From Escherichia phage vb_EcoM_bov9_1, in sequence record MT884006.2: a stretch of DNA of 64,000 bases, one strand, 5' to 3'. Below, one piece after another: positions 2,459-57,271 of the stretch. Within the stretch, counting starts at the first letter, position 1. The number at the start of each line of letters is the position of its first letter. The position numbers and the translations under genes are program-made. A model generated the notes under the pieces. It did no database searches. It was not told where the DNA came from and saw only the letters and a program-made list of their open reading frames with translations.

Positions 2459-4278
2459 TACTGGCTCATCCATTCTTTACGAAGGTCAGCATTATCCCCC
2501 ATGAGCATTTCAAAAAGCTCTTTCCAGTTCTCAGGAAGTTTAACAACATCATATACTGGGTTTTGAATCATCTCACGATATTCAGATTTTTCCAAAGAGC
2601 CAAGTCCCTTAATATAACGGATGCTATGTTTAGGTAGAGCATCTTTGGCACTCTCATATTCAGCGACTGTATAAAACCATTCTTGTTTTTTACCGACCTG
2701 AGCGATGATTACAGGAGTTTTGACAAAACGAATTCGTCCTTGCTCAAACAATTCTGGCCAATTACTAAAAAATCCGAGCAGAGAAGGATAAATGCTTCCT
2801 AAACCATCATGGTCAGCATCGGTCATAATAGCAATATTATGATAATTCAAGTTTTCAGCTTTTTCACCAAGAACTAATCCAGTGATTGCGCAAATATCAA
2901 ATAGTTCTTTGTTTTTAAGCATATCAGCATATGACATACCCCAACTGTTGAGAACTTTACCACGCAATGGATAACCACCATGAAGTTCTTTATCACGAAC
3001 ATCAATAAGATATCCGATAGCAGAATCACCCTCGGTTAAGAACAATGTAGTATCAGCATCTTTACCACAAAGATTCGCTTTAATATGTTTATGAACCTTA
3101 GCTTTAGAAGCCTTTTTAGCTGCTTTAGTTTCTGCTGCTTTTTCTGCTGCCAATTTACGAGCCAAGGCAGCTTCAATAATCGGCATTAGAATTGCTTCAT
3201 TATTTAGAATAGCACGTGAAATCTTTTTAGCATCAAGCTGAATATGACTACGGATTTCACCAAATGGAGAAGTCAAACGCTCTTTAGTTTGAGAATCAAA
3301 TCGCATGTTTTTCATATCACGAACAAACATAACGATAGTCAAACATTCTTTAACGCGTGCTTTAGTTACATCAATTTTGAACTTACGTTTGATTTGTGGA
3401 ATAAGGTCTTCACAAATATCATCCATAACACAGTCAATGTGATGGCCACCATTCTTAGTATGAATGTTATTGACGTATGTTAATTGACGAAAACCATCCG
3501 GTGAACGACCAACCGCAATAGAACAATTTTCTTGTTCTTGAACGATAGCATGCTCATCATATTGGCGTGCATATTTCTTAAAATTGCCCTGAACCTTTTT
3601 ACCATTAAAGGTAAATTGAATATCAGGATAAACTACTGCAAGTGTCTGGAGACGATCTAGTGTAATGTCAAGATAAACTTGGGACAGCTCATTAGTTTCA
3701 AATGACATAAAATCAGGAATGAAAGTAACACGAGTTCCTTTCCATTTTCCAGGAATATCTTCCCATGATTTATTTTCCATGCCGTTTGAACAACGAACTA
3801 CAATATTATTTTGACCATCACCAGTTTCACCGACAAACATCACAGAAAAAATGTTTGTCAAACTAGAACCAACACCATTCATACCGCCAGTGACGCGTTC
3901 TTTATCATCACCAAAGTTACCACCTGCTTTTGGAATAGTCCATGCAGCAACAGGACCAGGAATTTCTTCACCGGTAGGTGTTTTAACCATTGCCTGCGGA
4001 ATACCACGACCGTTATCTTCAACTGTTACTTGATTGTTTTTAATAGTAACATTAATTTTATTTGCGAATTTAAACTTAGTACGAATACCTTCATCTACTG
4101 AGTTATCGATAATTTCATCAATAAGCTTAACAAGACCAGGTACATACTGAACACTTTCCCATTTACCAAACAGAAAGCGCTCATGCATTTCATTAGCTGA
4201 AGAGCCAATGTACATGCCGCTACGCTTTTTGATGTGTTCAATATCACTCAGAATTTTAATTTCATTCTTAATCATCAC
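2458..4278 (-). CDS. 39: DNA topoisomerase II large (ATPase) subunit, unsplit gp39 (contains the region that is separate gene 60 in T4)
   Basis: 606-aa ORF; GyrB/ParE-like GHKL ATPase motifs (IIDNSVDE, EDNGRGIP, GGMNGVGSS) followed by TOPRIM-like region (LFLTEGDSA); contiguous reading frame. Confidence 0.9.
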   Translation of the reverse strand: MMIKNEIKILSDIEHIKKRSGMYIGSSANEMHERFLFGKWESVQYVPGLVKLIDEIIDNSVDEGIRTKFKFANKINVTIKNNQVTVEDNGRGIPQAMVKTPTGEEIPGPVAAWTIPKAGGNFGDDKERVTGGMNGVGSSLTNIFSVMFVGETGDGQNNIVVRCSNGMENKSWEDIPGKWKGTRVTFIPDFMSFETNELSQVYLDITLDRLQTLAVVYPDIQFTFNGKKVQGNFKKYARQYDEHAIVQEQENCSIAVGRSPDGFRQLTYVNNIHTKNGGHHIDCVMDDICEDLIPQIKRKFKIDVTKARVKECLTIVMFVRDMKNMRFDSQTKERLTSPFGEIRSHIQLDAKKISRAILNNEAILMPIIEAALARKLAAEKAAETKAAKKASKAKVHKHIKANLCGKDADTTLFLTEGDSAIGYLIDVRDKELHGGYPLRGKVLNSWGMSYADMLKNKELFDICAITGLVLGEKAENLNYHNIAIMTDADHDGLGSIYPSLLGFFSNWPELFEQGRIRFVKTPVIIAQVGKKQEWFYTVAEYESAKDALPKHSIRYIKGLGSLEKSEYREMIQNPVYDVVKLPENWKELFEMLMGDNADLRKEWMSQ

Positions 4279-16145: not shown

Positions 16146-16216
16146 TATTTTTCCTTTCAATTCATGGGTTAGTAGATTAATTATACAATAAATATATAAA
16201 GCAATAAGGAGGACAT

Positions 16217-16417
16217 ATGGTACAAAAATTAATGGCACTTGTTAATGCCATCAAAGGTAATAAGAAACGTATAGCTTTTACTATTTCTGCTATGGTAGGA
16301 ATTTTACTCTGGAACTTTATTTTATCACCAATTGCAATTGCGCATGGTGTTAATATTCCAGTAGTTACTCTTGATACATTCGTAGATCTAGCATTTGCTT
16401 TAGTTGGGTTAATTTAA
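16217..16417 (+). CDS. small hydrophobic protein on the plus strand (candidate)
   Basis: 66-aa ORF with strong SD (aaggagg) 4 nt before ATG; two predicted hydrophobic helices; sits in the 56-61 intergenic region antisense to nothing. Confidence 0.4.
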   Translation: MVQKLMALVNAIKGNKKRIAFTISAMVGILLWNFILSPIAIAHGVNIPVVTLDTFVDLAFALVGLI

Positions 16418-17610: not shown

Positions 17611-17967
17611 TTAACCTCTATTCATAAAAGCATTAAAAATTTGGTCATCAATCGATGGAATAGCAACTTTTTCTGCATCATTTAGCAAATCATTAATTTC
17701 ATCAGATAGCATAACACATGTACCTTTATTTCCTGTAATTGTTACTGCACAATTACGAACGTTTTCTTTATTAAATTTTAGGTTAATATTTTCGTAATGA
17801 AAATCCTTTAATGCCGAATATATCTTTAAAATGAAATTGTCTTTTACTACAATAAACCCAACCTCACTATTAAAACGTGGTTCATGGAAACTGTAATAAA
17901 CCTTTTCATCTATAAAATCGTATGAAATTTTTTCCATTTTTAAATATGAAAATTCAGAACTATACAT
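17611..17967 (-). CDS. hypothetical protein (61.1 position)
   Basis: 118-aa ORF; C-terminus SIDDQIFNAFMNRG shared with the next gene. Confidence 0.5.
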   Translation of the reverse strand: MYSSEFSYLKMEKISYDFIDEKVYYSFHEPRFNSEVGFIVVKDNFILKIYSALKDFHYENINLKFNKENVRNCAVTITGNKGTCVMLSDEINDLLNDAEKVAIPSIDDQIFNAFMNRG

Positions 17968-17968
17968 A

Positions 17969-18616
17969 TTAACCTTTATTCATAAAAGCATTAAAAATTT
18001 GATCGTCAATAGAAACTTTTACTTTAGGCTGTTCTTCAAACGGTAATTCATATCCACATATTACAATTTTGTGATCGATACCAAAATACACAGAAGCAAT
18101 ATGATTAATATTATTTTCAGTGAAATCTAAATCAACATCAATATCTTTTTGACCACAGCCCAAAGGATAATTAATACGAATAATTCGATTATCTTTAACA
18201 AATATTCCACCGACATACTCTGTGCTGCGTTTAAAGTTTACACGTTTCCTAAATGAAAAATATTCAGGTTCTTTATGAGCCCGACTCATAGGACACAATG
18301 AGTAGCTAGAATAAGAGATGTCAAATCCTACACCTTCAATATGAATATGAGCCAACGTGTCATGATTAAACCAATTATAATCATATGCCAAATCCATTAT
18401 ATTGTAATATGTGAAAGGCACCGGATTAACATCATGTGTTGTACCTTTAAAATCTGCCCAGGCAACGATTTCGTTATCTTTAACAATTACAAAAATTACA
18501 CCGATATGGTATCCATTATTATTTTCATTCGGCGTTATATTATAACATTGCGCATTAGGAAATTTACCATATTTAAACGGCGCGTTTTTGTGCATGTAAT
18601 AAATCATATTATTCAC
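17969..18616 (-). CDS. hypothetical protein (61.2 position)
   Basis: 215-aa ORF; C-terminus SIDDQIFNAFMNKG. Confidence 0.5.
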   Translation of the reverse strand: MNNMIYYMHKNAPFKYGKFPNAQCYNITPNENNNGYHIGVIFVIVKDNEIVAWADFKGTTHDVNPVPFTYYNIMDLAYDYNWFNHDTLAHIHIEGVGFDISYSSYSLCPMSRAHKEPEYFSFRKRVNFKRSTEYVGGIFVKDNRIIRINYPLGCGQKDIDVDLDFTENNINHIASVYFGIDHKIVICGYELPFEEQPKVKVSIDDQIFNAFMNKG

Positions 18617-57058: not shown

Positions 57059-57271
57059 TCATTTTTGTCCTGTATTTACTTTATGCCGATGTACGGCCTT
57101 AACTTTATCAAGGTATTTTTCAAAATTTCGCAATCTAGTATAGTCTGCCGGAGATTGGTTGAGTGATACTTCTCGACGCAAAGCTGAAATGATATTTCCA
57201 ACTTCCCTACGAATTTCATCTAATTGAAGCACAGTAAGATTGCGAAGTTGCTTTTCAGTTAATTGTAGCAT
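57059..57271 (-). CDS. hypothetical protein
   Basis: 70-aa ORF. Confidence 0.4.

Follow-up and report, generated by a model that had tools for sequence, protein, structure and literature searches.

dam.1, a conserved small gene convergent on the primase gene of T-even phages, with a predicted late promoter and a probable single-pass membrane product

In the 64-kb stretch of Tequatrovirus DNA analyzed here (the window), a 66-aa open reading frame (ORF) lies on the plus strand between gene 56 and the primase gene 61. This ORF belongs to the family of dam.1 of phage T4T and is a genuine protein-coding gene under purifying selection. The favoured reading, to which a probability of about 0.8 is given, is that dam.1 is a genuine accessory gene of T-even phages which has its own late promoter and encodes a single-pass membrane protein; its weakest step, a role of the protein at the envelope late in infection, is a guess. 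The ORF is already known, being annotated in MT884007.2 and in hundreds of further genomes. What is added to the database records, modestly, is the inferred late promoter and the arrangement of promoters described below.

The dam.1 locus and its coding frame

The dam.1-family coding sequence occupies 16217..16417 (+) and specifies 66 amino acids plus a stop codon from an ATG start, as given by the ORF list and by the match to PHROG 2024. A Shine-Dalgarno (SD) sequence, AAGGAGG, can be read directly at 16206-16212 (+) and is followed by four nucleotides (ACAT) and the ATG at 16217. The sequence-only reading had described a 66-aa ORF introduced by AAGGAGG-N4-ATG, and both this arrangement and the translation that it quoted were reproduced. 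It had also pictured a plus-strand ORF amid minus-strand genes, which agrees with the strand of the other annotated genes between 12.4 and 20.9 kb (19/19 minus). Moreover, the ORF is not antisense to any gene, as had been proposed; the opposite strand carries no ORF of at least 30 aa except a spurious GTG extension of gene 56. The placement of the ORF between gene 56 and gene 61, with its end at the end of the primase gene, was likewise correct. Here the two genes meet in a 4-nt TTAA palindrome (16414-16417, both strands), in which the TAA of the ORF (16415-16417) overlaps the stop codon of gene 61 (16414-16416). The same 4-nt overlap with gene 61 is found in T4, ST0/RB69, MX01, and PEi20, representing four genera. 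There are 51 plus-strand ORFs of at least 50 aa in the window, and the length of the 66-aa ORF alone is not unusual. An SD match, in turn, was found upstream of only one of these 51, the dam.1-family ORF, and in all 15 of the loci compared (15/15) GGAG or GGAGG stands at the same place before the ATG.

In the nearby 61.2 region, the adjacent ORFs 17611..17967 (-) and 17969..18607 (-), of 118 and about 212 aa, are paralogs. They are 37% identical over 106 aa (E=4e-11), and both have SIDDQIFNAFMN(R/K)G as a C-terminal motif; only one 61.2 gene is present in this region of T4.

In sequence the window agrees fully (100% identity) with MT884007.2, the record of Escherichia phage vb_EcoM_bov10K1 (Tequatrovirus), which lists the ORF as hypothetical protein QOC57022.1. 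The ORF matches phrog_2024 with E=1.5e-31, its residues 2-66 aligning with positions 1-65 of the 65-position profile, and the same profile matches orthologs of five other genera with E=4e-15 to 5e-28. PHROG 2024 is annotated as function unknown. In T4T (HM137666.1) the ORF is named dam.1 (protein ADJ39749.1), and its other names are RB69ORF029w (RB69, NC_004928), RB32ORF030w (RB14/RB32), and ar1_033 (AR1). The window ORF therefore shares family and locus with dam.1 of T4T, RB69ORF029w, and PHROG 2024, lying on the plus strand and tail-to-tail with gene 61. The T4 copy (17738..17938) is 97% identical to the window protein and falls within the 309-bp gap between dam and gene 61; in the T4 reference records NC_000866 (NC_000866.4) and AF158101 it is left without annotation. 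The T4 reference and T4T sequences of dam.1 differ at residue 25, which is T in the former and A in the latter. A literature search returned no paper pairing 'dam.1' with 'phage'.

Of the source labels examined for the orthologs, a few automated ones say 'holin' or 'head morphogenesis', and the rest are 'hypothetical' or 'uncharacterized'. The name 'putative head morphogenesis protein' in the T2 record (AP018813.1, 16631..16831) was rejected as an unsupported automated or propagated name; 61.1 is labelled likewise in that record. A separate labelling problem was seen in the T4 modA.x region of MT884007.2 (13064..13894, -), where three small ORFs of 60, 156, and 58 aa carry the label 'molybdenum ABC transporter ... 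ModA', almost certainly through a mix-up with the name of bacterial modA.

A tblastn search found the dam.1-family ORF in 692 phage records, in 686 of which it is full length. Orthologs occur in at least six genera, represented here by Tequatrovirus together with Mosigvirus (ST0, RB69), Gaprivervirus (DK-13, TH40), Jiaodavirus (JD18), Kanagawavirus (ZX14, PEi20), and Dhakavirus (MX01). All of them are on the plus strand and converge on the 3' end of primase gene 61, while the neighbour on the far side varies (gene 56, dam, or small ORFs). In DK-13 a homing endonuclease gene is inserted between the dam.1-family ORF and gene 61. Homing endonuclease genes thus flank gene 61 in relatives, on the side of the small ORF in DK-13 (2872-3621 of the locus segment compared) and upstream of gene 61 in PEi20, where the gene is mobE (3623-4231).

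Across the six genera the frame is unbroken and the product is 18-55% identical to the window protein, the copy of the ST0/RB69-type Mosigviruses being 55% identical. Family proteins are 61-69 aa long, and the family alignments contain seven invariant residues, M1, W32, N33, P38, G44, P48, and G64, most of which fall into the motif W-N-(F/Y/L)...P...G...P. Substitutions were counted by the Nei-Gojobori method in within-genus pairs. The ratio of synonymous to non-synonymous changes was 4:2 between bov10K1 and T4, 10:4 between bov10K1 and a Tequatrovirus from IMG/VR, and 8:3 between ST0 and RB69, with dN/dS within genera of about 0.11-0.15. Between genera dS is saturated, and dN is about 0.42. 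Ten distinct Tequatrovirus alleles vary at 14 silent sites and at 8 sites with conservative changes (V/I, V/A, A/T, N/S). The sequence-only reading had named conservation of the frame and the pattern of synonymous and non-synonymous substitution as a check on the ORF, and both bear it out. It had also held that disrupted frames in close relatives would count against the ORF. Such frames occur in two records (<1%), and the ORF survives: T4_ev240 (LR597657.1) has lost 1 nt from an A-run, and ERS-1 (PP337211.1), a record marked UNVERIFIED, has gained 2 nt. Both may be sequencing errors; if they are real, the gene can be lost.

The late-promoter core and its minus-strand neighbours

Upstream of the ORF, a late-promoter-like box, AATAAATA, is predicted at 16187-16194 (+). 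It corresponds to the T4 late consensus TATAAATA with A at position -13, and its ATAAATA core is at 16188-16194 (+). This core was found in all 15 loci compared (15/15, six genera), ending 12-22 nt before the ATG. The exact consensus TATAAATA stands upstream of the ORF in ZX14 and MX01, and AATAAATA is found in the bov10K1 window and the Mosigviruses. The T4 box upstream of dam.1 is GATAAATA, and that of DK-13, JD18, and PEi20 is CATAAATA. In most lineages position -13 is therefore A, G, or C, not T. Of 50 late sites in T4, 32 are perfect and 9 have A at -13, the commonest variant (Geiduschek and Kassavetis, PMC2988020), and T(-13) is poorly conserved among T4 relatives (Nolan et al., PMC1524935). 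As expected of a T4 late gene, whose box lies about 6 nt upstream of the transcription start, no -35 element accompanies the late box. Between T4 and bov10K1, shared homology begins only at the SD site and the late box is outside the homology block. From this, it follows that the late boxes lie in unrelated DNA and were kept independently.

The ATAAATA heptamer is strongly avoided in the window. It occurs five times in 128 kb (the 64-kb window counted on both strands), whereas a first-order Markov model predicts about 40 occurrences and the median count for AT-only 7-mers in the window is 44. The sites are +16188, +61617, -57303, -43895, and -15483. Four of the five lie directly upstream of an SD plus ATG, namely those of soc, endonuclease VII (gene 49), a 70-aa ORF of unknown function (57271..57059, phrog_1826), and the dam.1-family ORF; the fifth (+61617) has no obvious gene downstream. 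The resemblance to T4 late genes that lie in early regions (soc, and gene 49 with its late promoter; TATAAATA) is close, in that dam.1 likewise has the ATAAATA core at the right distance before SD and ATG. The difference is that the products and functions of soc and gene 49 are documented, whereas late transcription of dam.1 is predicted. T4 late promoters are reportedly listed by Miller et al. 2003. Taken together, these features point to a gp55-dependent late promoter at 16187-16194, which would start transcription near 16200 and give a leader of about 17 nt.

On the opposite strand, a MotA-type middle promoter for gene 56 and the oriA primer is found at 16180-16204 (-), with the MotA box TTGCTTTA (16204->16197), an 11-nt spacer, and TATAAT (16185->16180). 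OL960581.1 lists a T4-type middle promoter at the equivalent site, and gene 56 is preceded by a MotA-type promoter in both T4 and bov10K1. The two phages differ in what separates this promoter from dam.1. T4 has dam at this place, between gene 56 and the ORF, which puts the late box about 900 bp away from the MotA promoter. bov10K1 lacks dam, and the ORF therefore abuts the gene 56 promoter, with the late box inside the MotA-promoter spacer on the opposite strand. The late box and the MotA element also abut or overlap in ST0, DK-13, and JD18. About 40 bp of the bov10K1 window (16166-16205) correspond to about 920 bp in T4 (2807-3725 of the T4 segment compared), the dam cassette being missing, and neither dam methyltransferase nor segF gave a tblastn match anywhere in the 64-kb window.

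Replication from oriA is reportedly primed from a MotA-dependent promoter (PMC3016281). In the T4 record the oriA point is 22 nt inside gene 56 and the primer is the minus-strand gene 56 transcript; the dam.1 ORF is about 1 kb from this annotated point. The suggestion that the ORF could mark an origin-associated transcript was therefore not upheld, since the ORF is on the plus strand and the MotA promoter of the oriA primer is on the minus strand, in T4 a whole dam gene away. The origin-related transcript is that of the other strand.

A second minus-strand signal, a terminator-like hairpin plus T-run at 16229-16254 (-), lies within codons 5-13 of the ORF and is a candidate terminator of gene 61 transcripts. 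Its minimum free energy is -12.4 kcal/mol (z=-3.76), and none of 200 shuffled sequences was as stable (0/200). Two records, OL960581.1 and NC_055724.1, list it as a rho-independent terminator. In Tequatrovirus, the same stretch of DNA thus has a coding role and an RNA-structure role. The hairpin was considered as a cause of ORF conservation and ruled out, because it is confined to Tequatrovirus and absent in the other genera. A plus-strand terminator 3' of the ORF, annotated in OL960581.1, was also rejected, as its stability was not significant (z=-0.6). Late transcripts would therefore probably run antisense into gene 61, except in JD18, where a strong GC-rich hairpin lies between the ORF and gene 61.

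This geometry allows for a reading in which the late unit has a second action, on RNA or DNA, beyond encoding the protein: it would help to turn off origin priming and the synthesis of primase at late times. Late RNA polymerase would occlude the back-to-back MotA promoter, and the unterminated transcript would run antisense into gene 61. Such an action would suit the position of the late box inside the middle-promoter spacer of bov10K1, or next to and over the MotA box of ST0, DK-13, and JD18, as well as the lack of a significant plus-strand terminator and the stop codons that overlap in four genera. It is nevertheless unlikely, since the T4 promoters are about 900 bp apart with dam between them, the JD18 hairpin would stop read-through, and the DK-13 homing endonuclease gene separates the ORF from gene 61. 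Moreover, the conservation of the amino acid sequence indicates that the protein itself is the selected entity. A fuller version, in which the dam.1 late unit is part of a temporal switch at oriA that combines shut-off of the MotA promoter and antisense RNA through gene 61 with a separate envelope role for the protein, is somewhat less likely still. If true, the oriA switch would assist the phage in moving from origin-dependent to recombination-dependent replication.

The timing may also be questioned. dam.1 could be a real gene which is not late, being transcribed early or in the middle period from a plus-strand promoter of sigma-70 or MotA type, or expressed constitutively at a low level. 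A hidden Markov model (HMM) scan for late promoters in RB69 called no site upstream of RB69ORF029w (Nolan et al., PMC1524935), and this omission, along with the off-consensus base at -13 in most lineages, would be expected if the gene were not late. Set against this are a pattern scan that found no plus-strand sigma-70-like promoter upstream of the ORF and the ATAAATA core at the right distance in unrelated upstream contexts, which together make such timing quite unlikely.

In the favoured reading, that of a gene with its own late promoter, a gp55-type (N)ATAAATA element would drive dam.1 transcription from near 16200. dam.1 would then switch on after replication has begun, while early and middle minus-strand transcription would run antisense across the ORF; on the evidence of the upstream motifs, the gene is probably switched on late in infection. 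The sequence-only reading had offered a late or oppositely regulated small membrane protein, and this proposal has gained from purifying selection, from the SD and late-promoter core in every lineage, and from a basic N-terminus followed by a strong transmembrane (TM) helix. A T4 dRNA-seq data set exists (GSE255091; bioRxiv 10.1101/2024.04.04.588121), and the literature search found neither a T4 Ribo-seq paper nor one on unannotated T4 ORFs.

The predicted membrane protein and its possible role

An AlphaFold2 model built from a 12-sequence alignment (mean pLDDT 78.6) has helices at residues 2-12, 16-42, and 52-63. The hydropathy peak of the window protein (residues 19-41/19-42) falls within the second of these, and in RB69ORF029w one transmembrane helix, 21-41, was called by TMHMM (PMC1524935 supplement). 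The N-terminal 18 residues contain five K/R and 0 acidic residues, and the tail is acidic. Of the two hydrophobic helices that had been read from the sequence, the first was confirmed as a clear TM helix at about residues 19-42. The second could not be sustained as such, as the C-terminal helix (52-63) has 12 residues, is charged, and probably does not form another span. In the Tequatrovirus protein the C-terminal 20 residues have a Kyte-Doolittle mean of 1.9 and end in ...DLAFALVGLI. Charged residues occur in this stretch in all genera, and outside Tequatrovirus they are E, H, K, or R. A single span is favoured because the C-terminal segment is charged in the other genera.

Based on these predictions, dam.1 most likely encodes a single-pass N-in/C-out inner-membrane protein with a short periplasmic amphipathic helix; given the C-terminal hydropathy, a two-span hairpin topology may apply to the Tequatrovirus protein. 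In the inner membrane, the 61-69 aa product would keep its basic N-terminus on the cytoplasmic side, cross once through the TM helix (about 19-42), and expose a tail of some 24 residues to the periplasm. Five invariant residues, W32, N33, P38, G44, and P48, are concentrated in the outer half of the modelled helix and in the loop that follows, which suggests that the protein touches a specific partner in the membrane or the periplasm.

Searches for a function gave little guidance. The dam.1 protein had no match to a family of known function in Pfam, NCBIfam, or PADLOC. PDB sequences searched with the family profile gave a best E=0.42 and no functional lead, and a BFVD fold search returned orthologs only. 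When 1.84 billion representative proteins were searched with a profile, 7 matched; six were family members or fragments, and the seventh was an 1822-aa protein without an aligned stretch. The dam.1 protein is guessed to act on the cell envelope late in infection, where it might affect lysis timing, lysis inhibition, late exclusion, or membrane-based protection from host defence. The gene is probably dispensable under laboratory conditions. In being small accessory envelope proteins of T-even phages, Imm, Sp, and Ac are similar to the predicted product, and sp (and imm in RB69) lies a few kb from dam.1 in the same gene cluster. Unlike dam.1, however, they are encoded on the minus strand along with early genes, and no sequence similarity to them was detected.

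Another assignment found in the databases is that of a lysis protein similar to holins or pinholins. The label 'Holin' is attached to UniProt A0A482MZV5 (phage OE5505) and 'putative holin' to the ortholog of Klebsiella phage KP1079 (OM630219.1). As evidence these labels were set aside, since they look like automated guesses from size and hydrophobicity. The assignment also agrees with a small protein which has one or two hydrophobic segments and is probably late, and with the presence of at least one transmembrane domain (model helix 16-42, with the hydropathy peak there). In these respects dam.1 resembles class II holins and pinholins (phage 21 S68) as well as T and RI of T4, all of them small and, like the predicted dam.1 product, inner-membrane proteins. 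In contrast, dam.1 has no sequence or profile similarity to pinholins, T, or RI, and the hydrophilic, highly charged C-terminal domain expected of a holin is lacking, as the C-terminus is hydrophobic and it is the N-terminus that is charged. The gene is also outside the lysis cassette; its neighbours are the dCTPase gene (56) and gene 61, and no lysozyme, holin, endolysin, or spanin gene adjoins it. No holin family in Pfam, NCBIfam, or PHROGs matched the protein, and apart from its own ortholog the BFVD matches named 'holin' all had E>6. T4 t-null mutants fail to lyse, and therefore, to our knowledge, T4 has no second sufficient holin. A holin-like function is thus very unlikely.

Least probable by far is that the frame is fortuitous and the DNA is a regulatory spacer kept for the gene 61 terminator, the gene 56/oriA promoter, or origin sequence: the significant hairpin in codons 5-13, annotated as a terminator in two records, the MotA-type promoter that abuts the start codon, and the unannotated state of the ORF in the reference T4 record would fit such a spacer, but the hairpin is limited to Tequatrovirus while all six genera keep the frame open, substitutions are conservative with dN/dS far below 1, an SD is kept everywhere, the T4 ORF is 97% conserved even though its gene 56 promoter is 900 bp off beyond dam, and an Rfam search at the locus gave no match.

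dam.1 among T-even genes

The finding is of small practical value and holds nothing surprising for a T4 specialist. Its significance lies in the reference T4 record (NC_000866/AF158101), the mapping basis of most omics studies, from which this conserved and apparently late gene for a small membrane protein is missing. Screens that rely on the record, whether of transcriptome, proteome, or knock-downs, will therefore miss the gene. As a small, late, and partner-specific envelope protein, as predicted from its sequence, found in at least six T-even genera, the dam.1 protein would be a reasonable candidate for knock-out.
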